A stretch of 22,150 bases of DNA from a virus (taxonomy: Duplodnaviria; Heunggongvirae; Uroviricota; Caudoviricetes). The DNA is taken from the IMG/VR virus record IMGVR_UViG_2617270955_000009, one strand, 5' to 3'. The first letter of the stretch is position 1. Each line of letters opens with the position of its first letter. The position numbers and the translations under genes are program-made. The notes beneath the pieces are model-generated. The model was given only the letters and a program-made list of their open reading frames with translations. It was not told where the DNA came from and did no database searches. Shown one piece after another: positions 301 to 22,150 of this stretch.

Positions 301-1464
301 TCACTCATAATCTTCTGTTTCGTACTCCACATCAGAAAGCCTGACCTCAAGCTCTAAGGACGTCGTGAAGCCGCTATTATTCAGAAAATGTGTCACCTTA
401 GTGATTGTCCAGTCCTGCTCGTCTATGACGCGCTTAAAGCCTGACACTCTGACCGGTGTTTCCGTGTAAATATCTGCACGACCGGTAGCCAGGATGATGG
501 AGAACTCCGCAACGCCCCGTTGCAGTTTATCCCACTTCGCCTGAGCGGCACGCATAGCCTGCGCTTTTGTGGCATATACCGTGGTCAGGGCAAAAACGTT
601 GTCAGCTTCACCTGCCATGTATTCACCTTCGCGCGCTTCCGGTGCTTTTGGCGCTTTCTTCTGCGTGACCGGTTTCGCTTTCGGGTGCTCCAGTGCGCGC
701 AGGTGTTTCTCTTTCTTTTTGCGTTTCAGTTTTACCTTCTGCTTTTGTGGCTTCGGGTCTTTGGTGTGAAGCCACTTTGCCGTTACGCCGGTATAGGCTC
801 CACGGTCAGCAATCGCAAAATGATGACGGTCACCGTCGCTGCGGGTGATGGTAATCTGCGGGATTTTTTTACCGCTGGCCGTCACCCCCTGCCCCGCTTT
901 GAGAAACAACAGTTTTCCCATTTTTACCGACACCTCACCGCCGTTGCGTTCTGCAAGACGGGTCAGAAATTTCGCATCAGACTCCTGCGACTGGTCGATG
1001 TGCGGGATTTTAATTCCGGCCAGTGACGGAGCGACACTGGCTTCCAGCCTGTTACGGGAGGCTATCGCCTCAACAATCGCACCGAGCGTGGTGTCATGCC
1101 ATGAGCCTTCCCGGCGGGAATTGAGCGTCCCGCGAAAATCTGCACTCCGGGCACGGATGGTGACCACATCCGGCGCGCCCCGGTGTTCAACCTCATCAAC
1201 GGTAAATTTCCCTTTGCATACCAGGGCAAAACCTTTCCAGCCGATATACACCGTCAGGACAGCGCCACGAACCGGCAGCCCGACCTGCCCGTCGGCATCG
1301 TTCAGTTCAATATCAAGCTGGTCAGCCTCAAAGCCCCGGTTATCCGTCAGGGTCATGCTCATCAGACGGTCGCTGATATTGCCGGTAATATCCCTGCTGT
1401 CGAGCATCAGCATGTAATCCGGCGTCAGCGTACTGCCTGCATCAAATGTCAGCGTATCCAGCAT
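301..1464 (-). CDS. D: Tail protein D (late control gene D), 387 aa
   Basis: 387-aa ORF with lysine-rich central linker (KPQKQKVKLKRKKKEK); length and position between U and ogr match P2 gpD. Confidence 0.9.
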   Translation of the reverse strand: MLDTLTFDAGSTLTPDYMLMLDSRDITGNISDRLMSMTLTDNRGFEADQLDIELNDADGQVGLPVRGAVLTVYIGWKGFALVCKGKFTVDEVEHRGAPDVVTIRARSADFRGTLNSRREGSWHDTTLGAIVEAIASRNRLEASVAPSLAGIKIPHIDQSQESDAKFLTRLAERNGGEVSVKMGKLLFLKAGQGVTASGKKIPQITITRSDGDRHHFAIADRGAYTGVTAKWLHTKDPKPQKQKVKLKRKKKEKHLRALEHPKAKPVTQKKAPKAPEAREGEYMAGEADNVFALTTVYATKAQAMRAAQAKWDKLQRGVAEFSIILATGRADIYTETPVRVSGFKRVIDEQDWTITKVTHFLNNSGFTTSLELEVRLSDVEYETEDYE

Positions 1465-1943
1465 TATCCCGCCCCCGTCATACCCGTGAATTTAGTTGCC
1501 ATACTGCCCGCCTTACCGATGAGCGATTCCGCCTGTTTACCGATATCGCCATAAAGCGCGGCCAGTGATTCATCAACGCGGGTAAGTGACAGCGTAAAAT
1601 CAATTTTCCGGGGTGTGCCGTCGGCAAAGAAAATACTCCCTGTTTCACTCACCTTGCTGATGACATACATACCGTAAATCATGCCGGTGCCATCCAGCAA
1701 CGGCCACGCCCGGCCTTCCTCTGCCATCAGTCTGAGCGTGGTCATCGTCAGCTTGCCGCCGGTCAGTTCGGGATAAAGCACACCGGCAAGCGTCATGTTT
1801 TCCTCACCCACACCTAGAAACTGGTAGGCATCCCGTTTACCGATACGGGAATTTGACGGCCAGCGATAATCTGATTCACGCTGCATGGTCTGGTGTGGCA
1901 GCGTCTGGCGCATAAAAACAAACATCCCTAACGCGAGCATCAT
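1464..1943 (-). CDS. U: Tail protein U, 159 aa
   Basis: 159-aa ORF immediately downstream of T and overlapping the D start by 1 nt; size and synteny match P2 gpU. Confidence 0.85.
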   Translation of the reverse strand: MMLALGMFVFMRQTLPHQTMQRESDYRWPSNSRIGKRDAYQFLGVGEENMTLAGVLYPELTGGKLTMTTLRLMAEEGRAWPLLDGTGMIYGMYVISKVSETGSIFFADGTPRKIDFTLSLTRVDESLAALYGDIGKQAESLIGKAGSMATKFTGMTGAG

Positions 1944-1957
1944 TTTTCATCACCTCC

Positions 1958-4405
1958 TTAACCGTCATGCATCATGCTGGCACGGGCGCGCGCACGTTTA
2001 TCCCGCTCGTATTTTTCGAGCGCATCCTGTAACTGGCGGTCAAGCTGTGTCCCCGGCGCAGTACCACCCGTCAGGCTGATGTGATATTCGTTTTTACTCT
2101 GGTCCACATAAGAGCGGCCAGCCGGTGCCGTAACCGGCTGATAAGCCTGATAACCTGCATAAGAGCTGGTCGCCGGAATATAACCACCGGTGCCATACGT
2201 GGCGGCATGAGTTCTGGCGGCTGTCTGGTCAAGTGTGTCTGACTCTTTGTTGATGAACCCGAGCTTTTCCAGTACCCAGTCAATGCCGCTGCGTAATTTG
2301 TTGAACGCATTAAGCGGCAGCATCAGCGCGTCAGCCAGTGCCTGCCCGAACATGACGCCCGTGTCACGGCAACGGTTCAGGGTGTCCTGGGTGGCTTTGA
2401 CCGGGGCAATCAGGTTTTTAAACCACTGCCACGCAGCCTGTAACTTTTCACCCAGCCAGTCAAACACCGGCTTAAGTGGCGTGAACAGTTCTCCCACCGG
2501 CGCAAATGCCGCTTTCAGCCCTTCCACCACACCGCCAAAGAATGCGCTGACAGGCTCCCAGTATTTACGGATAAGTAACGCTCCGGCGACAATGGCGGCC
2601 ACCACGGCCACTACCGGCCAGCTAATCGCCCCGATGGCCGTCATAACGGCACTGCCAACCGTCGTGAAAATTGCCCCCATTGCGCCTGCTGCAGCAATGA
2701 TGGCATTGATGCCGGTGATAACCGGCCAGGCTACAAGACCAATGGCACCGATGATGCCAGTAAGCGCCAGTGCGCCACCGGCAATGAGGCCGATGGTTGA
2801 CGCCAGTGATTTGTTTTTCTGGATCCAGCCGTCGAGTTTTAACACATACTTTGTGGCCGTCTGCGTGAGCTTACGCAGTGCGCCTTCCTGCTGGTCAAAC
2901 AGGTCAGTCCCCACCGCCTCATAAGCGGACTGAAACTCTTTAAAGTCACCGCCGAGGTTGTCCTGCATGATATTTACCAGCTCGGCGGTCTTCCCGTCTG
3001 AGGCTTTAAACGCAGCGGTCAGTTTGTCCAGCTTTCCGGTTGAGGCGGCAGTCATCAGCACGGCGGCGGCTGAGCTGGCCTCCTCCCCGAAAATGGTTTT
3101 CATGTATTCAGCCTGCTGGGCAGTACCGAGCCGGTTTTTCTCAAAACTGGCCTGCATTTCTTTCAGAATGGTAAATATTGGCCGGGTGTTTCCCTTGCTG
3201 TCTGAGGTTTTCACTCCAAGCTCTTTGAGTGCATCCCATGCTTTTCCCGTCGGTGCCTGCAGGCGGCTTAACACGGCACGGCTTCCCGTCCCCGCCATTG
3301 AGCCTGTGATTTTTGCATCATGCAGCGCCCCGACCATTGCGGCGGTTTCTTCAATGCTGACACCGGCATTTTTTGCCACAGGTGCGGCATAGGTCAGCGC
3401 ATCGCTCATGCCGTCAAAATCGGCGGCGGTTTTGTTCATCGTCATGGAGAGAACATCCCCGATATGAGCGACCTTATCGTTTGAAAGCTGAAAGGCGGAT
3501 TTCATCCCCATCAGCAGGGCGGCGTTTTCTTCCATCGTGCGGCGGTTCGCCAGCGCCATATTCAGCGTGACCGGCGTTGCCGCCTGAATGGCATCAACAT
3601 CCCCACCCGCTTTCGCGATGATTATCTGTGCACCGGCCGCATCATCCGCCGAGGCGGCGGTATTGTCGCCGAGCTGGCGCGCCTGTTTGCGTAGTGCGGT
3701 CATTTCGGCGGAGTCTTTTGCCACTCCGAGCACGGCCTGCAATTCTGAGTTTTTCTGCGCAAACTCATAACCGGGCATCAGCAACTTAACTCCGGCCATC
3801 GTTCCCGCCGCCGCAATCCCCACACCGGCAGCGCCCACTGAGGCCATATTTCCGGCCAGTTCCTTTCCGGCCTGATAACGCTGTTTTACTGCATTAAGTT
3901 TTGCCTGTTGCGCACTGACACGCGCCAGCGCGTCACGCTGCCGGTTAAGCTGTGCGGTGGTTTCACTGATACGGTTTTTCAGTCCCTGCTCATCATGTGC
4001 AAGATTGCGGGTATTAATTCCCACAGCGGCCAGTTCCCGCTGCTGGCGCTTAACGGAATCCGTCAGGCGGTTATATTTCGCCTGTAAGTCCTCCGCCGCA
4101 CGCTTTGCGGATTCCAGCACTTTCGCCTGAGCACGGGTCGGACGTTCAGTGTTTTTAAACTGTGTGGCAAGTGCTTCGGCTTCCTGCCGTGCCTTTTCAA
4201 GTGCATGACCAGTCACGGCAAGCTGTGCGCTGGTCTTGCGAAATCCCTCAATACGGGATGCGTGACCGTTCAGCTCGCGCAGTGATTTTTGTGTTTCCCG
4301 GATATCCCCCGACAGCGACTTACTCGCTGTGCGGATGGATTTAAACGGGCGGGATGCCTGGTCAACAGCCCTGAGCAATACCTGTAATTTTACATTGTTA
4401 CTCAT
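1958..4405 (-). CDS. T: Tail tape measure protein T, 815 aa
   Basis: 815-aa ORF; coiled-coil-rich N-terminal third, Ala/Gly-rich hydrophobic middle segment, position after E/E'; matches P2 gpT length exactly. Confidence 0.92.
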   Translation of the reverse strand: MSNNVKLQVLLRAVDQASRPFKSIRTASKSLSGDIRETQKSLRELNGHASRIEGFRKTSAQLAVTGHALEKARQEAEALATQFKNTERPTRAQAKVLESAKRAAEDLQAKYNRLTDSVKRQQRELAAVGINTRNLAHDEQGLKNRISETTAQLNRQRDALARVSAQQAKLNAVKQRYQAGKELAGNMASVGAAGVGIAAAGTMAGVKLLMPGYEFAQKNSELQAVLGVAKDSAEMTALRKQARQLGDNTAASADDAAGAQIIIAKAGGDVDAIQAATPVTLNMALANRRTMEENAALLMGMKSAFQLSNDKVAHIGDVLSMTMNKTAADFDGMSDALTYAAPVAKNAGVSIEETAAMVGALHDAKITGSMAGTGSRAVLSRLQAPTGKAWDALKELGVKTSDSKGNTRPIFTILKEMQASFEKNRLGTAQQAEYMKTIFGEEASSAAAVLMTAASTGKLDKLTAAFKASDGKTAELVNIMQDNLGGDFKEFQSAYEAVGTDLFDQQEGALRKLTQTATKYVLKLDGWIQKNKSLASTIGLIAGGALALTGIIGAIGLVAWPVITGINAIIAAAGAMGAIFTTVGSAVMTAIGAISWPVVAVVAAIVAGALLIRKYWEPVSAFFGGVVEGLKAAFAPVGELFTPLKPVFDWLGEKLQAAWQWFKNLIAPVKATQDTLNRCRDTGVMFGQALADALMLPLNAFNKLRSGIDWVLEKLGFINKESDTLDQTAARTHAATYGTGGYIPATSSYAGYQAYQPVTAPAGRSYVDQSKNEYHISLTGGTAPGTQLDRQLQDALEKYERDKRARARASMMHDG

Positions 4406-4825
4406 TCGTGTTTCCGCTTCGCCGGAGCGCCTTTTCGCGCCATGTGATGAGTTCGGTCAGGCTCATGGGATACAGTTCTGATGGCGGCCAGTGAAATATC
4501 ACTGCCACATCCGCCATCAGGTCATCGACCGAGAGATTTTTCGGAAACGTTACTGCACCGAGTTCGGCGACAAAAAACCGACCACCTTACCGGCCAGCGC
4601 CACAAGGTCAGGCAGCTCCAGCGCGGCGACCTCCTGCTCAGTCAGCATCGGTGCCGTCATGCGCGGCAGCACTTTAATCAGTGCATCGACTTCGGAGTTT
4701 GCGACCGCAGCCAGACTGACACCGCGCAGCGTCCCGGCATTGGGTTTCATCAGCGTGACCTGTTCGATAACCTGCTCACCACGCTTGACCGGATTGTCCA
4801 GGGTAATCACATTTTCTTTGTTCAT
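4398..4825 (-). CDS. E+E': E+E' fusion made by programmed -1 frameshift (predicted 142 aa)
   Basis: On the minus strand the E frame reads GGT TTT TTG TCG. A -1 slip on T_TTT_TTG continues as VAELGAVTFPKNLSVDDLMADVAVIFHWPPSELYPMSLTELITWREKALRRSGNTNE and stops at TAA (4398-4400), overlapping the T start (ATGAGTAA). 85 aa of E plus 57 aa gives 142 aa, the known P2 E+E' size. Confidence 0.75.
4550..4825 (-). CDS. E: Tail assembly chaperone E, 91 aa
   Basis: 91-aa ORF MNKENVITLDNPVKRGEQV...GKVVGFLSPNSVQ; size and position (between FII and T) match P2 gpE. Confidence 0.88.
   Translation of the reverse strand: MNKENVITLDNPVKRGEQVIEQVTLMKPNAGTLRGVSLAAVANSEVDALIKVLPRMTAPMLTEQEVAALELPDLVALAGKVVGFLSPNSVQ
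4571..4577 (-). other. -1 ribosomal frameshift slippery heptamer T_TTT_TTG (minus strand)
   Basis: Plus-strand CAAAAAA at 4571-4577 is TTTTTTG on the coding strand, six codons before the E stop; this is the canonical P2 E/E' shift site. Confidence 0.75.
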
Positions 4826-4881: not shown

Positions 4882-5400
4882 TCACAGGCCGATATTGCGG
4901 CGGTGTTGCTCCAGCCGGTCGACGCCGTTCACCTTCTCAATCATGTTGATGGTGTCAATTTCGACCAGCTCCTTACCGTCCATCGTCAGCCGGAAATAGG
5001 TGCAGACCACGGAGATTTTCGACTCGGTGTCTTCTCCCTGTTTACCCTCGCCGGTGTCGATTTCTTTCTGACGGCCACGCATGACCACTTCGACGGCCAC
5101 CGTTTCGCCGGTATCGTCACGCTGGTAAGAGCCTGCAAAACGAATCGGCACGGCATCCACACCGGTTGCGGCGTAAAGTTCCCAGATAACCGAATCCGGG
5201 AAGCCCCCGAGCGACCACTCCATTGACAGCGCATCGTCATCAAGGCCGAGGTCTACCGGTGCGCTGCCGTTCATCCCCGCACCGCGATAGTTTTCGAGCT
5301 TACGGGTCAGTTTTGGCAGCGTGACGGACTTCGCGACGCCCTGATAGCTGTAGCCGTTCAGAAAGACGTTCATTAACTTGAGTTTGCGCGGCATTGCCAT
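4882..5400 (-). CDS. FII: Tail tube protein FII, 172 aa
   Basis: 172-aa ORF directly downstream of FI; length and synteny match P2 gpFII. Confidence 0.9.
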   Translation of the reverse strand: MAMPRKLKLMNVFLNGYSYQGVAKSVTLPKLTRKLENYRGAGMNGSAPVDLGLDDDALSMEWSLGGFPDSVIWELYAATGVDAVPIRFAGSYQRDDTGETVAVEVVMRGRQKEIDTGEGKQGEDTESKISVVCTYFRLTMDGKELVEIDTINMIEKVNGVDRLEQHRRNIGL

Positions 5401-5412
5401 CGGTCAGACTCC

Positions 5413-6603
5413 TTAATTGCTGTTAACCGAGGTGACCAGATTTGCCAGGTATTTATCGGTAATACGCTGGCGCAGGGTCAGGTTTTCAAGAGGAGGCACC
5501 GGGGTATAGTCGTAGTCGATATACAGTTTTCCGGCCTTGAGGGTTTCCGCATCGTTGGATTCTTCGCTGAACCAGCAGGTCGCATCCACGATATAGCCGT
5601 TTGTTTTCAGCTCACGGAATTTGGCATTGATACCGTCAACGATGTCGCGAATCAGCGTTGCGGTGATGGGCTTGTCCACCGCCCACATGTGCGCCTCAGC
5701 CATCGTGTCGGCCAGCACCTGCGCGGTGCGGGTGTAGTTTTCAAAGAGGAACAGCGGGTCATCAGAGCAGGTACGGTTACCCCAGAAGCGGAAACCGTCG
5801 CGGCGAATCAGCGTAGTGACGCCTGACTCGTTAAGCAGGTCAGCATCAGTGCCGGACTCCTGCAAATCCCAGAATACAGATGCGCTGATGCCGGTAACAC
5901 CGTTTACCCCGACGTTGGACAGCGTTTTATGCCAGCCCTGCTCCTGGTCGATTTTAGCGCGCAGACCCAGCGCACGGGCGGTGGCATACGCGGTGGCGGT
6001 GGTGCTGGTGACCGTATCCCATGCGAGGAAATCCGGCCAGATGACCATCAGCTCACGCTGGCTGAAATTCTGGCGGTAGGCTTTCACCTCGGAAATGGTT
6101 TTACAGCCCCATGCGCTGATATACCCGAAAGCGCGCAGCTTCTGACAGACAGATGCCAGTGCAACAGCCACCTCTTTGGTGTCCAGTCCCGGTACGCCGA
6201 GAATACGCGGTTTAACACCGGTTACCGACTCCGCCGCCAGCAGGGCTTTCAGTCCGGTGTACTGACCGTTTTCGTCGGTGGTGCCGATGATATTGGAAAC
6301 GGTCTGCGCAAGTTTCGTTTCTTCGTCGTCGCCGGTGCCGTCTTCAACACGCACGACAACGGTGACCGGTTTTGACTGGTCAGCGATGGCCTGCAACGAC
6401 GCCGCCAGCGTGCCTTTTTTACCAGCCTTTGCAATTGCGCTCTGCACATTGGTAATCAGCACCGGTTTATTGAGGGGGAAGGTTTCCGCATCCGCATCGC
6501 TGGCCGTGCAGACCATGCCGACAATGGCAGTGGATACGGTGGAAATGACGCGGGTGCCGTCGTTAATCTCCAGCACCTGCACGCCGTGATGATAGTCACT
6601 CAT
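5413..6603 (-). CDS. FI: Contractile tail sheath protein FI, 396 aa
   Basis: 396-aa ORF; length and synteny match P2 gpFI. GGAG Shine-Dalgarno sits about 10 nt upstream of the ATG on the minus strand. Confidence 0.92.
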   Translation of the reverse strand: MSDYHHGVQVLEINDGTRVISTVSTAIVGMVCTASDADAETFPLNKPVLITNVQSAIAKAGKKGTLAASLQAIADQSKPVTVVVRVEDGTGDDEETKLAQTVSNIIGTTDENGQYTGLKALLAAESVTGVKPRILGVPGLDTKEVAVALASVCQKLRAFGYISAWGCKTISEVKAYRQNFSQRELMVIWPDFLAWDTVTSTTATAYATARALGLRAKIDQEQGWHKTLSNVGVNGVTGISASVFWDLQESGTDADLLNESGVTTLIRRDGFRFWGNRTCSDDPLFLFENYTRTAQVLADTMAEAHMWAVDKPITATLIRDIVDGINAKFRELKTNGYIVDATCWFSEESNDAETLKAGKLYIDYDYTPVPPLENLTLRQRITDKYLANLVTSVNSN

Positions 6604-6704
6604 CCGTTTAACTCCGTGGTTAATGGGTGCAACTATTTTCTGTTGTGCGAAGCATGAGACGCTATTTGACCTGGCTGGTCAGTGAATGAAACAACAGATA
6701 AAGA
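6604..6704 (-). promoter_or_regulatory. Expected late promoter region for the FI-FII-E-T-U-D operon (P_F equivalent); exact elements not resolved
   Basis: About 100 bp between a terminator hairpin and the FI start. Contains a TGACC-N5-GGTCA dyad (6667-6681) and a TGTTGT...ACAACA pair, but I could not find an exact TGT-N12-ACA Ogr-site consensus. Confidence 0.3.
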
Positions 6705-6729
6705 AAAGACGGGCAATCAGCCCGTCTTT
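6705..6729 (-). terminator. Rho-independent terminator hairpin (minus-strand oriented)
   Basis: AAAGACGGG-caatcag-CCCGTCTTT, a 9-bp stem with 7-nt loop, followed on the minus strand by the T-rich tract TCTTTATCTGTTGTTTC. Confidence 0.6.
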
Positions 6730-6814: not shown

Positions 6815-7864
6815 TTAACTACATGAATCAATGATGTTTTTCACAAGCTTATTTATTTCAGATTCATTAGTGCCAAATTCACCCGCTTTAAAATTAATAC
6901 CTCGCGCTGCAAGATTTCTTTTTATTTTACTTACTTCACTCAGCATAAAGTCATAATTTAACGTTTTTTCTTTAATGCCCTTTGAATATATTACAGGGAA
7001 GGCTTTCATTAATGCCGCATATCCTGTGAGTTTACTTAAATAATATTCCCTTGGTGTATTCCACTCAACTGGATAGACATTGCTAATAGCATTAAAATAA
7101 TTCAATATTATTTTTTGAATTACAGCGTCATTCTCTTCGATAAAATAATCGCGGAATATACACTGATTATTTGGCGTTAATGGCAGATTCATTTTTAACA
7201 TTCTTGCATCATCATCAGGTTTTTTTGAAATATGTTGGATAAGATATTTAATGAAAGTGCTTTGTGATAATGATGCATTATCTTGGTTTATTTCCTTTTT
7301 CCCAAGCATTTTTAGCTTTTTATAAAAAGGGGAATCAGGATTACTGTTTATTCCTCTCGCGATTTCGTGGCATGTTTTTTGTGGACTCCTGCGTTCTGCA
7401 AGCGAAAATAAATCATATACAATTGATGGATTTACACGAGTTTGTTTACTATTAATAATTGAGAAAACATAGGCTTTTTCTTCATCAGTAAGATCAAACA
7501 TTAAAACAACAGGTAGTTCAAAAAGTTTAGCATTAGAGGAATTTTTAATTCCCCATAATCTGTGTTGACCATCGATAACATCACCTATAACCACTTCAGA
7601 CTCAAAGTAAAAATAGGTATCATCCATTTTTAAATTGGATGAATCATCGACGGAAATTATGATCGGCGTTGGAAAAGTCGCATCCGGCTCACTAGTGTAC
7701 TTTGCGATTTCTGAAACTCTTGATGATGAAATATCCCTTTGCACACCAAATTCGAAATCTCTGCGACGATCAACTCTAACTATATCGAGCAAGTCAATGG
7801 CTCTTATTGATGTTAAATAGAAAGTACCGATTGGTTGATTAACTTCAATATATTTCAACTTCAT
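6815..7864 (-). CDS. DGQHR-domain protein (DndB-like, ParB/sulfiredoxin-fold), 349 aa; accessory cargo gene B
   Basis: Exact DGQHR motif at residues 98-102 (nt 7559-7573, VIDGQHRLWG), preceded by the family-typical N-terminal QPIGTFYLTSIRAIDLL element. AT-rich codon usage. GGAG Shine-Dalgarno 8-11 nt upstream. Start ATG overlaps the stop of the upstream membrane gene (ATGA at 7861-7864). Confidence 0.8.
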   Translation of the reverse strand: MKLKYIEVNQPIGTFYLTSIRAIDLLDIVRVDRRRDFEFGVQRDISSSRVSEIAKYTSEPDATFPTPIIISVDDSSNLKMDDTYFYFESEVVIGDVIDGQHRLWGIKNSSNAKLFELPVVLMFDLTDEEKAYVFSIINSKQTRVNPSIVYDLFSLAERRSPQKTCHEIARGINSNPDSPFYKKLKMLGKKEINQDNASLSQSTFIKYLIQHISKKPDDDARMLKMNLPLTPNNQCIFRDYFIEENDAVIQKIILNYFNAISNVYPVEWNTPREYYLSKLTGYAALMKAFPVIYSKGIKEKTLNYDFMLSEVSKIKRNLAARGINFKAGEFGTNESEINKLVKNIIDSCS

Positions 7865-8460
7865 ATCATAACTCCTTTACCATCATCAGTTACTTCATTG
7901 GTTGCCATTGTCTGATCTATAACTATTGCATCTTCTTTTTCTATATAACTTTCATCATTTATATCTGTATGTGCAGTAGCGTTAAGTTTTAATACGCCAA
8001 ATGTATAGCATACTAAGACTATAGAAATAACATAAATTATAGGTTGAGTTAAACCGAATGTTAAATCATTAGAATTTGGTAGGATTAAATCCTTTGATTG
8101 CGTAGCAGCGTATATTATACCTGATAATTGTAATAAAATAATCAATAATATTATTGATATGATTTTTATTGTTTTAAATTCAAGTTTTGAACTAAAAAAA
8201 GTTACAAACATAGGCCCAAGGGCAGAGGCTATTAATGCAATGGAAAATGTGTAAAAACTTCCTGACGAACCTTCTATGTAAATAGATTGATCTAGTGGTA
8301 TTGAATGTGAATAATATCTTATGATTATATTTGCAATAATCCCCATTTGCCCACAAACAACTGTAAAAACGATCCAAATAAAAAACTCTCTTTTGTTTTT
8401 TCTTATCGCATCGAATGGATAGGAAAGGGATTTCTTTAATATTTGCCAGTCTTTACTCAT
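7861..8460 (-). CDS. Small integral membrane protein, four predicted TM helices, acidic C-terminal tail (199 aa from ATG; 202 aa if the GTG at 8467-8469 is used); accessory cargo gene A
   Basis: Hydrophobic segments FFIWIVFTVVCGQMGIIANIII, FYTFSIALIASALGPMFVTFF, IKIISIILLIILLQLSGIIYAA and TQPIIYVISIVLVCYTFGVL; C-terminal DINDESYIEKEDAIVIDQTMATNEVTDDGKG. The ORF-track start at 8469 is a GTG; the first ATG is at 8458-8460 with AAGAG upstream. Confidence 0.7.
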   Translation of the reverse strand: MSKDWQILKKSLSYPFDAIRKNKREFFIWIVFTVVCGQMGIIANIIIRYYSHSIPLDQSIYIEGSSGSFYTFSIALIASALGPMFVTFFSSKLEFKTIKIISIILLIILLQLSGIIYAATQSKDLILPNSNDLTFGLTQPIIYVISIVLVCYTFGVLKLNATAHTDINDESYIEKEDAIVIDQTMATNEVTDDGKGVMI

Positions 8461-8646
8461 GTTATGCACTCTTTATTTAAACTTATCAACAATATGTAAC
8501 TATCAATTAATAACCGTTTACTCTTTTCAAATAATAAAATTATAATCATCAAAAAAATCGACATTATAATTAGACAACATTTTTAACACTAAGTGATACC
8601 TGACTCATGTCTCCAGACCCTAAAACCGCTTGCATAATTTAGAATG

Positions 8647-8864: not shown

Positions 8865-9443
8865 TTATTGTGGCATTTCAGGCCATTCTATATCCGGAGC
8901 ATCTTCCGGCTGAATGCGATTCAGTAGCACACGGTATTTTTTCCAGTGTGTCAGGCTTAACTTTTCTTCCTCAGTTGCCATATCCAAATCGACAGCATCC
9001 TGCAGCGTGGCAATGATTTCACCTGCATATGCAATCTGCTCTTTCTTCTGAGACTCAGCCGCTCTGACAAGTGCATCACGCTCTGCATTCTCATCATTCA
9101 CCCACGCATTTCCGTTCCATTTCTGATAATCCCCCTCCGGGGAAATGGCTGTCACGTCTGGAGATAATGCGCCAAGTTCAGAAATATAAATGGCTGCTCC
9201 CGTTTTCGTTTCGTATACGGTCTTTCCGCGATGGTCTTCCATCAACTCCCATTTCATTTCATCTGCATTGAAAACGGCTGCATAACCAGCCGGTATATCA
9301 GGCGGCGCAATATCTGTACTGTTTGCAGGCAAACCTGTATACGGAGGAATATATGCATCACTTTCGCCAATAAATTCATTGGTTCCATCAAGTAAATTGA
9401 AAACGCGGATAGTTTGTGCTTCTGCACTCATTCTGAAAGCCAT
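8865..9443 (-). CDS. G: Tail fibre assembly protein (Tfa / gpG-like chaperone), 192 aa
   Basis: 192-aa ORF immediately 3' of tail fibre H with a Tfa-typical conserved C-terminus ([29 protein letters not shown]). Confidence 0.85.
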
Positions 9444-12061
9444 TATGCAAGCCTCACAATATAGTTAAATGCGATGTTTTTGACGGTGTTTTCGGTATTA
9501 CCTGTAGCATTAACGGTAATAGAGTGCCCGTGTGAGCCAATAGCAACCGTGTGTGAATGTGCACCAATACCAACCGTATGATTATGTGCGCCAATATCTA
9601 CCGTGTGGGCATGATTCCCGGCAGCTCCTGATGTGCCATTAAACGATGGGTTGTCAAAGCCTGTTTTACCGGTTTCACCATTAGTATTGGCATTCCCTCT
9701 GTAAATGGTATGTGTATGGTTACCAGTGGTATTAGTGGTTTTTGTTCCGTAGTTAAACGTACTGACTGTCTTCGTCCCGTAATCAAATGAACTGGTCGTT
9801 TTCGTCCCTAAATCCGTATTTGACGCACTGGCACTGTGAGTATGCGATTTAATCCCGTCCTGTTCCTGTGACAATACGGCACGCCCACTGGCGGGTTTGC
9901 CCTTGATTGTCCAGCCGCGCATATCTGGAATAACACCAGAAGGATAGACAATAGCCAGTTTCGGATATGCAGCCTTATCAAACGTCTGCCCCTGCATAAT
10001 TGCATAGCCTGCAGGTGGTGTATCTGATGGCCACGGCAGCGGAACACCAGGCGGAAACGCTTCAATATCTTTCGTCCCGTCAAAGGTTACGCCGTTAATT
10101 GTCCTTGCCGTTTTCAGCTTTGTTGCTGTAGCAGCATTGCCGGACAGTTCGCCTGAAAGACCGGCGCTGAAGGTTTGTTTCGCCGCCCATGTCTGGGCTT
10201 CGTCAATAATTGGCACACGTCTTGTGGTGATCGTGCGACTTCCCGGATTTCCTGAAATACGCACCATAAAAAAGCGGTAGTTCGCTTTACTTACAGTGCT
10301 GCGCCATACATGCATTGAGCGCCCCGCACCGGAATCATCACTCGGACCAACTGAGATGTTTATCAGGTTGCCATCAATGACGCCCCAGTCCATACCTTCG
10401 GGAATGTTGGTCATGTTATCAAGCCGAACGGTTATCAGACTGCCCGGCACAAAGTCGTAGGTCTGCCAGTCCAGGCTGGAGAGTTTTGCCACTGCACCGC
10501 CGATACCCAGATTCAGGGGAAGTGAATACGAGGTGTAGACTTCACGCCATTCGCTCCACGAGCTGCCGGTATAGACGCGCTCAAACGTGCGACCTTTAAG
10601 GGTTGCACCTGTTCCGGCAGTTGTATAACGCTGCCATACGTTAACACCATCAAAGCGCCTCAACACTTCCAGAATCCCGAGGACTGTCACGCCGTTTCCG
10701 TCCAGTATTGGACCGTTGGTCGCTTTACCTGTAACGCTGTAAATACCTGGTGAAGTCACCTCATTCAAATCCCCGTCGTAATAACGACTCTCTGACTGAT
10801 GACCGACTCTTAACCACGGTTCCCACTGTGGATTTGATGCATCCCAGCTTGCCGCAAGGCAGCGGACATACATATTTCCACGGCGAGTGGTATAACGTTG
10901 CGTTCTTCCATAATTCCCGCCTTCGAGGATCTCAAGCATCCCCTGAGCAAAGCCGCCTTCCTCTGGATAATTGCGTTCATATGAAGCTATAGCCGAGCTA
11001 CTGTTACGCCATAAACCAAGATGCTCGGCGGCTCCAAGCGTATTCAGGTCTATAGTCGTACTCAAAGGGCGGGTAGCAGATTGAGTGTGACGCCATACGC
11101 CCCACGGACCATCAGTGCCATTCCACTTATTGGCGAGTTTACGCATGTAAACATTGCCGTCTCTCGTGGTAAAGCGTTGCGTACCTGCAAAATTGCCGGC
11201 AGCAAAAACCTCAAGCACACCGACAGCATTATCTTCCGGGAAATTTTTCTCCAGTGTTGAGTTAGTTGAGGTAGCTTTAGACCAGATCCCCAGATAAGCC
11301 TTAACGGGACCAAATGTATTCAGGTCGGCATCAACCGGCATTTCGCCATTGTTTTTCATAAACGTCAGACTGGTAACGCCAACATTGTCCAGAAAAGCTG
11401 ATTTATCCTGGATATCTGCACCATTCTGATTTTTCGCCAGACGTGAATTTGCGTTGTCATTTGCTGCCTTGACCGCTTTTGGCGTTGCCGCCAATGACTC
11501 ACTGGTGCTGTTTGTTGCACTGCTTAACTGAGTAAAACCTTTTTCTGTCAGCGTGGCGTCAGGATGGCGGCGGGACTGCTCATGTTCTGCGATTTTGTCA
11601 TCGACGTAATCCTGCGTCGCCATCACTGTGCTGGCATCAATACTCAGCTCAACGGACGCCACGTTACTGACAATAATAACCATGCGGCAGGTCTGCGCAC
11701 GCCCGGAGCCTTCAGCGAGTTCAGGCTTATAGCTTTCTGCCATGTTGGCGACCGCAATCAGTGTTCCGGCATCGTCATACAGACCAAGCTCACGCATCCA
11801 GAAGCCGCCCACTTCGGGCGGTACAACCAGTTCAGCCACGATATAGTTTTTATTCTTATTATCCACGCTGACTTTATTCAGAGCGTGACGCCAGACCTCA
11901 TGCACCAGTTTCGTCTGACCGGCATCCGGCACCGGCAATTTGCCATTACCGTCACCCACGGCCATTGCAGACAGGTTTACTTTTTTCCCGCCGGGGACAG
12001 TGGCGGCTGCCAGCTTCGCGGCTCCGGCAGTAGTGATAACGGTTTTAAATTTCGTGCTCAT
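9443..12061 (-). CDS. H: Tail fibre protein H, 872 aa (longer than the 669 aa of P2)
   Basis: N-terminus ([21 protein letters not shown]...) is P2 gpH-like; the central part has three ~70-aa internal repeats; the C-terminus has His-x-His repeats ([36 protein letters not shown]). Confidence 0.88.
9515..9630. repeat. Tandem ~27-bp repeats within the 3' end of H, encoding the histidine-rich (HxH) repeat
   Basis: Plus-strand units resembling caaccgtgtgtgaatgtgcaccaatac / caaccgtatgattatgtgcgccaatat / ctaccgtgtgggcatgattcccggc; the period of 27 nt equals the 9-aa protein repeat. Confidence 0.6.
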
Positions 12062-14487: not shown

Positions 14488-14553
14488 AACGGGAAGGATG
14501 CCGCCGGGTCATACCGGCGGCAATGTGACGATGAGGTGTCGGGAATGGCACAA
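14488..14553 (-). promoter_or_regulatory. Expected Ogr-dependent late promoter for the V-W-J-I-H-G operon (P_V equivalent)
   Basis: 66-bp S-V intergenic gap. Minus strand reads TTGTGCCATTCCCGACACC ... TATGAC about 25 nt before the V ATG. A TGT...ACA dyad is present but with 10 nt rather than 12 nt spacing, so the assignment is tentative. Confidence 0.3.
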
Positions 14554-18767: not shown

Positions 18768-19784
18768 TTACGCTCCCGGCTCTGCGGTCGCTTTAGCCAG
18801 TGTGGAGAAATCACCGACCTTAATTTTTTCCACCAGACAACCGGCGGCGTAGTCTTCCACCACGTAATCAATGTTCATTGACTCGTAGTTCTCCACGCGG
18901 TCGAGTTTCGGGTTTTCCTCAATCACGCGGCGATGGCTGTCATCCATGTAGTAGATGGACAGGTTTTCCAGCTTTGTGATGAGCATCGCATCCGCCGGGA
19001 AGTACGGGACGCGTACCGCCGGCAGGTTACCGATGCGTTTCTGGCTGATGATGACGTCAGCGGCCAGCATTTCGCTGTTGTCCTGCTCCTTGTTGACGAT
19101 GGGAAAATACTTGTCCGCCAGTAGCTGACGTCCCACAATCACCACAAGGTCAGGGTCTTCCTGATACCACGGCTCAATCAGGTTGTTGGTCGCATCCATC
19201 ACCAGTGCGTCAAGGCTGGCATAATCACCGCCCTTACCCACGCGGATAACCTCAGAGATGGTGTGCCCTTCCTCGTCAGTGACCTTGCTCATCACGCGCG
19301 CCGGTGCTTCATTGCGGTATTTCTGCAGCCAGCCGACCGCCACATCCTGTAGCATCGGATTACTGCTGCGGTCAGAGGTTTCGGCACGCCTCACGCCGTT
19401 AAAACCGGCCATGATTAAATCAAGGGACTGGCGTTTGATAATGGCGTTACGGATACGGAGCTGGAAATCCTGATAACGCGCCCACAGGTCAAGCGTTTTG
19501 TAGCGGATATAAAAATCGAAGTTAATCTGGTCGCATTCGTACTTGTTTGACGCCAGCTTCGAGAAGTCCTTCGGCTGACGCTCGGTGCCACCGGCGGTGT
19601 CGCTGGTGCTGGCGATGGAGCCGGTGACACCAATACCAATTTTTTCCCCTTTCATTTCGCTGACCGGCACAATGTTGATGCGGGTCAGAAAGTCAGAGGA
19701 CTCCTGCATGGTGTTCATCAGGGTCTGGGTGACCGACGGTTCAACGGTGAATTTTTTCGACACATCACCGGTGCGTATTTTCAT
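18768..19784 (-). pseudogene. N: Major capsid protein gene N, 5'-truncated by IS insertion (338 codons retained of about 357)
   Basis: ORF is P2 gpN-like from GDVSKKFTVEPSVTQTLMNTMQESSDF onward. The in-frame upstream sequence hits a stop within IS-type repeat sequence (GAGTGATCTCC), and the ATG at 19782-19784 is fortuitous at the junction. Confidence 0.8.
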
Positions 19785-19964: not shown

Positions 19965-21506
19965 ATGCCAACAGTTCCAATTTCTATGAGAAAACTTAAA
20001 GAAATTCTTAGGCTTAAATACGGTGTTGGACTCAGCCATCGACAAATTGGTCGTAGTCTTGCAATCTCCCCTTCCGTTGTATCCAGATATGCTAATCGGG
20101 CGGCTCAACTTGGCATAAAGCAGTGGCCCTTACCTACAGGATGGGATGATACAAAACTAAAACATGCGTTCCTTCAGACCCAGGTTAAGATGAAGAAGCA
20201 CTCTCTGCCTGACTGGGCTACAGTACACCGGGAACTGCGTAATAAATGCGTGACGCTGCAGCTACTCTGGGAAGAATACTGTGAGCGTAATCCAGGCGGT
20301 TTTTACAGCTATAACCATTACTGCCGGATGTACCGTGAATGGCTCAAAACCACTTCACCATCAATGCGTCAGGTACATAAAGCTGGCGAAAAACTTTTCG
20401 TTGATTACTGTGGACCTACCGTTGGCGTTACCGACCCTGAGACCGGAGAAATAAGAACTGCTCAGGTCATCGTAGCTGTTCTCGGGGCATCAAGTTACAC
20501 ATGGGCAGAGGCCACCTGGTCTCAGCAGCTTGAAGACTGGGTGATGAGTCATGTTCGCTGCTTCCAGTGGTTGGGTGGCGTTCCTGAACTTGTTGTTCCG
20601 GACAATCTGAAAAGCGCCACATCCAGGGCATGTAAGTATGATCCTGACGTTAACCCTACCTACCAGCAGATGCTTGAGCATTATAATGTCGCAGTTTTGC
20701 CTGCGCGGCCACGTAAACCGAAAGATAAAGCCAAAGCTGAAGTTGGCGTTCAGGTTGTTGAACGCTGGATCATGGCCCGAATCAGGCATGAGATCTTCTA
20801 CAGCCTTGCATCGCTTAATCAGCGCATTCGGGAGTTGCTGGAAAGACTGAATAACAAAATAATGCAGAAGTTGGGTTATTCACGTGCAGAACTCTTCATC
20901 CAGCTTGATAAACCCGCACTGAAGCCTCTTCCTGAAGCCAGTTACAGTTACACCCTGGTGAAGAAAGTCAGAGTTCATGCCGATTACCACGTGGAAATCG
21001 ACAAACATTACTACTCGGTTCCATGTTCGCTGTTAGGCCAGCAACTGGAAGCATGGATCTCCGGAGAACTGGTAAGACTCTTCAATCAGGGGCAGGAGGT
21101 TGCTGTGCACCCGCGCAAGCGTACTTATGGCTACAGTACCCGCAACGAGCACATGCCTGAAGCTCATCGACAGCATGCCACCTGGACGCCAGAGCGTCTT
21201 CTGGAATGGGCGGGGCACATAGGCAGTGAAACTCATAGTTATGTGCTTCATATACTGAACTCTCGTCCACATCCGGAACAAAGCTATCGCTTCTGCCTTG
21301 GACTCCTGAACCTTCATAAAAAATACAGTAAAGCCAGACTTAATGCAGCATGTGCAAGAGCTCTGAAAACAAAGGTATGGCGTCTGTCAGGTATTAAATC
21401 GATCCTGGAAAAAGGTCTGGATAAACAACCTGTTCAGGATCCAAAACCAGATCTGTTATCCACGATGGAACACGAAAACGTACGCGGCAGTGAGTATTAC
21501 CACTGA
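19965..21506 (+). CDS. istA: IS21-family transposase IstA, 513 aa
   Basis: 513-aa ORF with an N-terminal helix-turn-helix region (LSHRQIGRSLAISPSVVSRY) and a central integrase-like region; followed 12 nt later by an IstB-type gene. Confidence 0.85.
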   Translation: MPTVPISMRKLKEILRLKYGVGLSHRQIGRSLAISPSVVSRYANRAAQLGIKQWPLPTGWDDTKLKHAFLQTQVKMKKHSLPDWATVHRELRNKCVTLQLLWEEYCERNPGGFYSYNHYCRMYREWLKTTSPSMRQVHKAGEKLFVDYCGPTVGVTDPETGEIRTAQVIVAVLGASSYTWAEATWSQQLEDWVMSHVRCFQWLGGVPELVVPDNLKSATSRACKYDPDVNPTYQQMLEHYNVAVLPARPRKPKDKAKAEVGVQVVERWIMARIRHEIFYSLASLNQRIRELLERLNNKIMQKLGYSRAELFIQLDKPALKPLPEASYSYTLVKKVRVHADYHVEIDKHYYSVPCSLLGQQLEAWISGELVRLFNQGQEVAVHPRKRTYGYSTRNEHMPEAHRQHATWTPERLLEWAGHIGSETHSYVLHILNSRPHPEQSYRFCLGLLNLHKKYSKARLNAACARALKTKVWRLSGIKSILEKGLDKQPVQDPKPDLLSTMEHENVRGSEYYH

Positions 21507-21517
21507 TACGGGATCCA

Positions 21518-22150
21518 ATGATGAATCATCTTTACGAACAACTGACCGCACTTAAACTCACCGGCTTCCGTGATGCGCTTAAAAAGCAACTTGCTCAACC
21601 GGGCACATACCAGGAGCTGGGCTTCGAAGAACGCCTGTCATTACTGACAGCAGAAGAACTAACCTGCCGTGAAAACAGGAAGGCAGAGCGTCTGATCAAA
21701 CATGCACGGTTCAGACTTAATGCTGAGTTATCAAAGCTGGATTATCGTAACAATAGAGGGCTGGACAGGGCCCTCATCCGTTCACTCAGTCAGGGAAACT
21801 GGTTAACCCTGAAACAAAATATTTTACTGACCGGGGCCACCGGCAGCGGTAAAACGTTCCTGGCATGTGCACTTGGTCATAATGCCTGCCGACAGGGATA
21901 CAAGGTCTACTATTATCGCCTTAAAGCGCTGATGGAACAGTGCTATCAGGGGCATGCTGATGGAAGATACAGCAAACTTTTGACCAGGCTGAATAATAGC
22001 GATCTGCTGCTTCTGGATGACTGGGGGCTGGAACCTCTCTCATCAGAACAGCGTAGCGACCTGCTGGAAATAGTGGATCTGATGTACCAACGAGGCTCAA
22101 TCATCGTAGTGAGCCAGTTGCCGGTGGAAAACTGGTACAAAATGATCGGA
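21518..22150 (+). CDS. istB: IS21-family ATP-binding helper protein IstB (3'-partial, runs off window)
   Basis: My own translation from ATG 21518: MMNHLYEQLTALKLTGF... with Walker A GATGSGKT and Walker B LLLLDDWG; no stop before the window end. Confidence 0.8.
   Translation, partial: MMNHLYEQLTALKLTGFRDALKKQLAQPGTYQELGFEERLSLLTAEELTCRENRKAERLIKHARFRLNAELSKLDYRNNRGLDRALIRSLSQGNWLTLKQNILLTGATGSGKTFLACALGHNACRQGYKVYYYRLKALMEQCYQGHADGRYSKLLTRLNNSDLLLLDDWGLEPLSSEQRSDLLEIVDLMYQRGSIIVVSQLPVENWYKMIG

Follow-up and report, generated by a model that had tools for sequence, protein, structure and literature searches.

The locus examined here raises the question of how a reading frame that appears to lack a start codon of its own is translated. 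In a stretch of 22,150 nucleotides, the IMG/VR virus record IMGVR_UViG_2617270955_000009 (hereafter referred to as the window), the tail tube gene FII and the tape-measure gene T of a P2-like prophage flank the short gene E, and the E' frame continues beyond E in the -1 phase up to the start of T. An earlier reading of the bare sequence (the original prediction) had proposed that E and E' are joined by a programmed -1 frameshift. Our analysis leaves little doubt that the site represents a programmed -1 ribosomal frameshift of the gpE/gpE+E' tail-assembly chaperone pair of a P2-like (Peduovirus) Escherichia coli prophage.

The positions of all elements of the site are given in Table 1. The coordinates of the original prediction proved right throughout, and the strand, which it left unstated, is the minus strand. 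The slippery heptamer T_TTT_TTG is in phase with E, the phasing being GG[T TTT TTG], and the slip codons correspond to codons 84 and 85 of E (Phe84 and Leu85). As had been noted, six codons separate the heptamer from the E stop; they encode S P N S V Q, and the translated C-terminal end of gpE reads ...AGKVVGFLSPNSVQ*. The E' frame can be entered only within a narrow segment, because an in-frame TAA 9 nucleotides 5' of the heptamer closes it on the upstream side. Consequently, the -1 frame is open only from position 4586, and a productive shift is confined to the 37 nucleotides in which frames 0 and -1 overlap. This overlap contains a single full X_XXY_YYZ site, namely the T_TTT_TTG. Read from G4571, the translation of the extension is VAELGAVTFPKNLSVDDLMADVAVIFHWPPSELYPMSLTELITWREKALRRSGNTNE; its 57 codons and the terminating TAA inside ATGAGTAA at the T start agree with the original prediction, as does the length of the fusion, for which 85 and 57 residues add up to 142 amino acids. 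Within the genes of the window, an open run of at least 57 codons occurs at only 3.2% of the -1-frame positions, with a median of 9 codons. Taken together, the open -1 frame, the lone heptamer and the match of the extension to PF06528, described below, are beyond chance expectation.

The zero-frame open reading frame (ORF) of E matches the Pfam family PF10109 (Phage_TAC_7, 'Phage tail assembly chaperone proteins, E, or 41 or 14') with 47 bits over residues 7-85, the gathering score of this family being 25. The -1 extension matches PF06528 (Phage_P2_GpE; gathering score 23) with 76.3 bits (E = 1.2e-21) over residues 104-139 of the fusion. In addition, gpE matches PHROG 103 ('tail protein'; E = 2.6e-45), and E' matches PHROG 1756 (E = 1.4e-28) as well as PHROG 6416. 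By these profile matches, the zero-frame ORF is a member of the E-type tail assembly chaperone family and the -1 extension a member of the GpE (E') family. A Pfam scan of the entire fusion (E <= 0.01) returned PF10109 and PF06528 only and revealed no homology to lambda gpG/gpT, and a sequence search of the PDB retrieved no solved structure for any relative of gpE or gpE+E'.

The alignment to the P2 E/E' region, which the original prediction had suggested as a check, yielded a clear result. Over E, E' and T, the window shares ~99% nucleotide identity with P2 (AF063097) and with the Yersinia phage L-413C, and the heptamer, the entire E' frame and the ATGAGTAA overlap are unchanged. The P2 record describes gpE+E' with the words 'shares amino terminus with gpE; -1 frameshift; essential tail protein', and the base following the terminal G of the heptamer carries the label 'site of -1 translational frameshift'; the L-413C record likewise annotates gpE+E' as a -1 frameshift product. 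In P2, the -1 shift at TTTTTTG gives rise to the 91-amino-acid E and the 142-amino-acid E+E' proteins (PMC3091744, citing Christie et al. 2002). It occurs with a frequency of ~10%, and the fusion is essential for tail assembly (PMC3091744, PMC5009743, citing Christie et al. 2002). Moreover, the P2 site has been placed in the conserved class of tail-chaperone frameshifts typified by lambda G/GT (PMC3091744, citing Xu et al. 2004; PMC5009743), and the frameshift efficiency in P2 and related phages lies 2- to 3-fold above that in lambda (Atkins et al. 2016, PMC5009743). The identity to P2, the annotated records and both publications (PMC3091744, PMC5009743) thus bear out the proposed match to the conserved tail-chaperone frameshift of P2-like and lambda-like phages. 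The frameshift site has been described before (Christie et al. 2002; Xu, Hendrix and Duda 2004) and is very common. With regard to biology it offers nothing new; it is a recoding signal of textbook standing, and the E. coli prophage that contains it is likewise very common.

The 601-nucleotide region around the site is 98-99% identical to 74 Peduovirus records, and 540 stretches in IMG/VR encode a relative of gpE, the best 80 of which are 99-100% identical. No variation in the heptamer was observed among 67 close haplotypes. In the stretch of these haplotypes that is used by E' only (4549..4406), 14 of the 22 variable sites fall at codon position 3 of the -1 frame (binomial p = 0.0035), which indicates selection on this frame. 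In close relatives, each of the two stop codons occurs as either TAA or TGA, the variable bases being window positions 4551 for E and 4399 for E'. The change in the E stop is silent in the E' frame, and that in the E' stop alters codon 3 of T (N to D).

The comparison also comprised 16 diverged Peduoviridae with 32-71% identity to gpE, namely phage 186 and phages of Yersinia, Burkholderia, Ralstonia, Halomonas, Klebsiella, Salmonella, Pseudomonas, Aeromonas, Acidovorax and Mannheimia. Each of these 16 has a -1 frame that is open for 33-55 codons beyond the E stop and encodes the motif DDLMADIAxIFHWPP...WRExA, and in each an in-phase X_XXY_YYZ heptamer is located in the overlap. This heptamer is T_TTT_TTG in 12 phages and T_TTT_TTC in two, and the remaining two contain C_CCT_TTC (one Klebsiella phage) and G_GGA_AAG (Mannheimia 1127AP1, where the annotators note the same heptamer). 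G_GGA_AAG is the heptamer of lambda as well.

A wider survey, composed of the 16 relatives and of IMG/VR loci from the P2 clade and three other clades, covered 284 analysable loci with 198 distinct haplotypes and 99 distinct E' peptides in four Peduoviridae clades. Stops in the -1 frame of related genomes, to which the original prediction had pointed as evidence to the contrary, do not emerge from this survey: 195 of the 198 haplotypes match the E' hidden Markov model and have an open frame, and the rest are three haplotypes in which E itself is broken. An in-phase heptamer together with an open E' frame is present in 97 of the 99 distinct E' lineages, in the form of T_TTT_TTG (90), T_TTT_TTA (3), T_TTT_TTC (2) or other sequences (2). 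The two exceptions derive from the same three haplotypes (L131-L133), found on three independent Burkholderia-type IMG/VR contigs. Here, a 1-nucleotide deletion shortens a G-run from G6 to G5, 18 nucleotides upstream of a T_TTT_TTG and ~275 nucleotides into E, and thereby disrupts E, while T_TTT_TTG and the E' frame are still present. Judging from this deletion, the three loci are pseudogenes or homopolymer sequencing errors and not counter-examples. We also observed that the intact version of their G-run is itself an in-phase G_GGG_GGT heptamer.

Given that the heptamer contains a homopolymeric T6, the fusion might alternatively arise during transcription. In this case, RNA polymerase would stutter on T6 and add one U to part of the mRNAs, which gives exactly the E' frame and would result in the fusion junction ...GFF-VAELG.... 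T6 followed by G, A or C is found in 95 of the 99 lineages, and a weak terminator-like hairpin (4598..4577, minus strand; 8 pairs, four of them G-U) runs directly into T6 and could in principle pause the polymerase. However, with z = -0.7 this hairpin does not stand out, nor is it retained in relatives, and we rejected it as a functional element. Moreover, the two diverged lineages with G_GGA_AAG and C_CCT_TTC have lost the homopolymer and still obey the tandem-slippage rule, and the X_XXY_YYZ phase of the T-run relative to frame 0 is always held, a feature that matters to ribosomes and not to RNA polymerase. Both observations favour ribosomal over transcriptional slippage. In enterobacteria, efficient cases of transcriptional slippage usually need runs longer than six. 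We consider a transcriptional origin of the fusion very improbable.

Current annotation suggests yet another route to E', since RefSeq and the Prokaryotic Genome Annotation Pipeline (PGAP) list a 'GpE family phage tail protein' at 10396..10515 of the closest complete genome (NZ_CP123325.1), which corresponds to window ~4517..4398, and many GenBank phage records are annotated alike. E' would then be a separate gene of 39 amino acids that is initiated at an internal ATG, encoding the Met of ...DDLMADVAV..., and no frameshift would be involved. However, this Met is not conserved, its place being taken by Ile in Mannheimia 1127AP1, Ala in Ralstonia YO006_4, Glu in Aeromonas phage 3 and Val in Klebsiella clades, and on this ground an independent start at the internal ATG was rejected. 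Furthermore, in all lineages the open frame and the coding conservation run upstream of the Met to the heptamer, the PHROG 1756 alignment already starts at fusion residue 82, and the ATG is not preceded by a Shine-Dalgarno (SD)-like sequence (...CUCGGUCGAUGACCUG-AUG). In line with these observations, the curated P2 and L-413C records and PMC3091744 describe a fusion. The probability of a separate E' gene appears negligible; as far as the sequence tells, E' possesses no start site for translation and can be entered only by way of E. The free-standing 39-amino-acid E' in RefSeq/PGAP and in many GenBank records represents a systematic annotation shortfall, by which automatic pipelines split the unit into a 'phage tail assembly protein' and a free 39-amino-acid 'GpE family phage tail protein'. 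Recognition of the heptamer permits the correct annotation of the 142-amino-acid fusion, and it is in this respect that the site is of practical value.

For the programmed -1 frameshift we propose the following course of events. Most ribosomes translating E would read GGU UUU UUG and six further codons and release the 91-amino-acid gpE, and a minority would slip one base back on U_UUU_UUG with tRNA-Phe occupying the P site and tRNA-Leu the A site. Both tRNAs would re-pair with UUU UUU, and the ribosome would continue with GUC GCC GAA... in the -1 frame for 57 codons to yield the 142-amino-acid gpE+E', ending at the TAA that overlaps the T start. In lambda, the short form gpG coats the tape-measure protein, and the long form gpGT also recruits the tube protein (PMC5009743). 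By analogy, the N-terminal domain shared by gpE and gpE+E' may coat the tape-measure protein, and the E' domain on the rare fusion may recruit the tube protein. The slip frequency would set a fixed ratio of the two proteins and in this way control tail assembly, and neither protein would be part of the virion, reminiscent of the lambda-class chaperones, which are absent from virions (PMC5009743, PMC3091744).

The arrangement of the E' stop and the T start prompts a further consideration. In 71 of the 99 lineages, the E' stop and the T start overlap, in 37 of them with the -5 geometry that is found here, and in 16 more lineages T starts at most 5 nucleotides downstream of the E' stop. In the window, T is not preceded by a strong SD sequence (AGCGGAAACACGA-ATG). 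Given this proximity of the E' stop to the T start, together with the lack of a strong SD sequence in front of T, one could envisage that T synthesis is translationally coupled to the frameshifted ribosomes, with those that terminate E+E' reinitiating on T. We regard such coupling as unlikely; the stop/start pattern is compatible with it, yet also usual for compact phage operons. If coupling were to take place, the level of T would follow that of the fusion chaperone, which is rare, and not that of the abundant gpE. As to the gene that follows E', the record of Mannheimia phage vB_MhM_1127AP1 (NC_047750.1, 1182-1793) contains no tape-measure-sized ORF after E'; a 128-amino-acid hypothetical protein is encoded there, directly followed by U.

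A search for stimulatory RNA elements around the heptamer gave several candidates, none of which was retained. In the window, a small hairpin begins 2 nucleotides past the heptamer. The 45 nucleotides downstream of the heptamer fold no better than shuffled sequences (z = -0.4), z is around 0 in 17 relatives, and the relatives have no hairpin in common, on account of which a downstream stimulatory structure was rejected. This null result agrees with the published statement that P2 lacks a downstream RNA structure at the shift site (Lynch et al., PMC3091744). Further away, ~51 nucleotides downstream, a perfect 10-base-pair stem (CUGAUGGCGG...CCGCCAUCAG) with an inner 6-base-pair stem is located at ~4525..4484 on the minus strand (z ~ -4), where it falls in the most conserved part of E'. 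Among 91 distinct sequences, 63.0% of cells pair as compared to 62.4% in shuffles, and we rejected the stem as a conserved RNA element. Likewise, RNAalifold found no consensus structure in these 91 sequences, and the stem is without covariation and not kept beyond the P2/186 clade. On the evidence of this alignment, the stem arises incidentally from the LMAD and PPSE codons of that clade. Upstream of the heptamer, AAGGTGG resembles an SD sequence; it is not supported as a stimulator of the dnaX type, as it lies only 4 nucleotides from the heptamer, tracks the peptide GKVVGF/AKVIGF and is restricted to close relatives.

Several points weigh against the interpretation of the site as a working programmed frameshift. 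Neither a stimulatory RNA structure nor a conserved SD-like element was found in these searches, which leaves the heptamer alone to account for the efficiency and the level of frameshifting unexplained. Moreover, the production of the fusion, its frequency of ~10% and its essentiality are transferred from the virtually identical P2 sequence. In addition, an insertion sequence (IS) interrupts the capsid gene N, the early and regulatory region lies beyond the window, and the F operon may or may not be expressed in the host. Along the same lines, we infer both the chaperone mechanism and the expression of the pair in a capsid-defective prophage.

Table 1. Positions of the frameshift site, the surrounding tail genes and the interrupted capsid gene in the window
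Feature	Position	Strand	Description
Gene E (gpE, tail assembly chaperone)	4825..4550	minus	91 amino acids, zero-frame product; stop TAA 4552..4550
TAA in -1 frame	4589..4587	minus	9 nucleotides 5' of heptamer; closes E' frame at 5' side
Slippery heptamer T_TTT_TTG (X_XXY_YYZ)	4577..4571	minus	predicted site of -1 shift, in phase with E
E' extension	4571..4398	minus	57 codons in -1 frame plus TAA 4400..4398; without conserved start codon
gpE+E' fusion span	4825..4398	minus	142 amino acids (predicted): codons 1-85 in frame 0 plus 57 codons in frame -1
ATGAGTAA	4405..4398	minus	T start codon 4405..4403 overlapping E' stop 4400..4398
Gene T, tail tape-measure	4405..1958	minus	815 amino acids; PF10145 PhageMin_Tail, E = 2.4e-45; 806/815 residues identical to P2 gpT
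Gene U	1943..1464	minus	distal in operon; full length, 97.5% identity to P2 gpU
Gene D	1464..301	minus	distal in operon; full length, 97.7% identity to P2 gpD
Gene FII, tail tube	4882..5400	minus	172 amino acids, directly upstream of E; 172/172 residues identical to P2 gpFII; function from homologue annotation
Gene FI, tail sheath	5413..6603	minus	396 amino acids, opens F operon; 391/396 residues identical to P2 gpFI; from P2 operon annotation
N remnant	18768..19771	minus	capsid gene N interrupted by ISEc12 at 19771/19772

The genes around the site follow the order FI-FII-E-E'-T-U-D on the coding strand, collinear with P2 17534..24252 at 96.6% identity (Table 1). Across the window, collinearity with P2 runs from ogr by way of D, U, T, E and FII to FI, and further on from G to N. 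ORFs of P2 length without internal stops and with 93-100% identity were found for FI, FII, E, T, U, D, V, W, J and I and likewise for R, S, X, L, M, Y, K, lysA, lysB, lysC and ogr, the late activator encoded by ogr being identical to that of P2 in 72 of 72 residues. H and G are also full length and free of internal stops, but they belong to another tail-fibre type than those of P2. The original prediction had held that the frameshift confirms an intact tail assembly module in spite of an IS-disrupted prophage. The module is indeed intact at the ORF level, as a separate check found FI, FII, E, T, U, D, V, W, J, I, H, G, R, S and X to be full length without internal stops; the frameshift signal alone, however, does not confirm this. 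What the intact E/E' site does is to support the view that the tail and lysis modules are intact at the ORF level despite the IS-broken capsid gene.

The disruption by an IS was correctly recognized. The homology to P2 stops at 19771 (P2 coordinate 4150), 70 nucleotides into the major capsid gene N, and is replaced from 19772 by ISEc12 (IS21 family), which extends past the window end at 22150 and contains istA at 19965..21506 on the plus strand. None of 5,426 complete E. coli genomes contains the exact ISEc12/N junction, and the closest genome, AREA_502, harbors the same prophage beside yegQ with ISEc12 in lysA instead. For these two reasons, the insertion into N looks recent and strain-specific. 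The reading of the capsid-less prophage as a domesticated tailocin was dropped, since the uniqueness of the IS junction among these genomes points to a recent accident.

The same findings lend some weight to the idea that the frameshift signal is intact but idle. According to this idea, it would be kept only because the IS arrived recently, no virions would be produced, the signal would have no current role, and it would decay in the future; the interruption of N close to its start, the absence of the junction from other genomes and the relative with an IS elsewhere, in lysA, are all in accord with it. However, such a scenario concerns the current use of the element and not its identity or working, and it is compatible with the programmed frameshift proposed above. 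Moreover, ogr and the lysis genes are intact, as is the F operon over its full extent, and tail proteins including E+E' could thus be made on induction. Upstream of FI, TGT-N12-CCA is kept at the position that aligns with the annotated activator (Ogr) binding site of P2. We consider an idle signal possible, if somewhat unlikely. The F-operon promoter region itself (6600-6717, minus strand, upstream of FI) is much more diverged from P2 than the flanking genes, the alignment showing a mean column identity of 87% over 136 columns and one 3-nucleotide indel.

Other parts of the window differ from P2 as well. The tail fibre gene H (window 8865-12061 together with G, minus strand) encodes 872 amino acids as compared to 669 in P2, with 34% global identity, and its nucleotide homology to P2 stops ~600 nucleotides into the gene. 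The fibre assembly protein G comprises 192 amino acids versus 175 in P2 and shows 30% identity. The difference of H and G from P2 represents a swap of the host-range module. Between G and FI (window 6815-8469, minus strand), at the Z/fun position of P2, fun(Z) is replaced by two cargo genes. The first encodes a 349-amino-acid DGQHR/DndB/DpdB-like protein (PF14072, E = 5e-11; PADLOC DpdB, E = 1e-16); the second, which overlaps the first, encodes 202 amino acids and has no match in Pfam or PADLOC. The two genes may constitute a defence cassette in a known P2 cargo hotspot. Furthermore, the nonessential orf30 of P2 (~0.8 kb, in the S-V interval) is absent, and 66 nucleotides (window 14488-14553) part the two blocks of P2 homology at this place.

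Among the known systems with which the site can be compared, the E. coli dnaX gene (tau/gamma) resembles E/E' in that -1 tandem slippage on an X_XXY_YYZ heptamer gives rise to two proteins with a common N-terminus. In dnaX, the heptamer is A_AAA_AAG, an upstream SD-like element and a downstream stem-loop act as stimulators, and the shift reaches ~50%. In contrast, no conserved 5' or 3' stimulator was found at the E/E' site.

The similarity to lambda G/GT is one of arrangement. In both cases, the major tail (tube) gene and the tape-measure gene enclose two overlapping ORFs, which are connected through a -1 shift of low frequency at an X_XXY_YYZ heptamer. On the other hand, the two pairs have no detectable sequence similarity, the heptamer is T_TTT_TTG here, and the P2 tail is contractile, which makes the tube protein inside the sheath the partner of the fusion. 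Low sequence similarity between the classes of tail chaperones has been noted in general (PMC5009743). E/E' is accordingly best described as a pair that is predicted to work like lambda G/GT and is not its sequence homologue.

A closer counterpart is found in orf51/orf52 (gene H) of phage 186 (Eganvirus), where a T_TTT_TTG likewise precedes the stop by six codons and the frame continues for 51 codons beyond the stop, as it does in the window. Phage 186 also shares the -5 overlap with the tape-measure start, and its record states that the product is 'probably produced by a translational frameshift'. It differs in that the amino-acid identity in E is ~71% and the protein of phage 186 has a longer N-terminus (111 amino acids).

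The closest counterpart is gpE/gpE+E' of the P2 FETUD tail operon (Christie, Temple, Bartlett and Goodwin 2002, J Bacteriol 184:6522). For the E stop, the window has TAA where P2 and L-413C have TGA, and in the E' frame both versions encode the same residue (Val); in addition, E contains a few synonymous changes and one N/S difference, and the prophage analysed here carries ISEc12 in N and other cargo at the Z/fun position. Apart from these differences, both share the T_TTT_TTG heptamer, the products of 91 and 142 amino acids and the ATGAGTAA overlap with T, gpE is identical in 90 of 91 residues, and E' is identical from the slip site to the stop. By this degree of sequence identity, the element is P2 gpE/gpE+E' itself and not merely like it.

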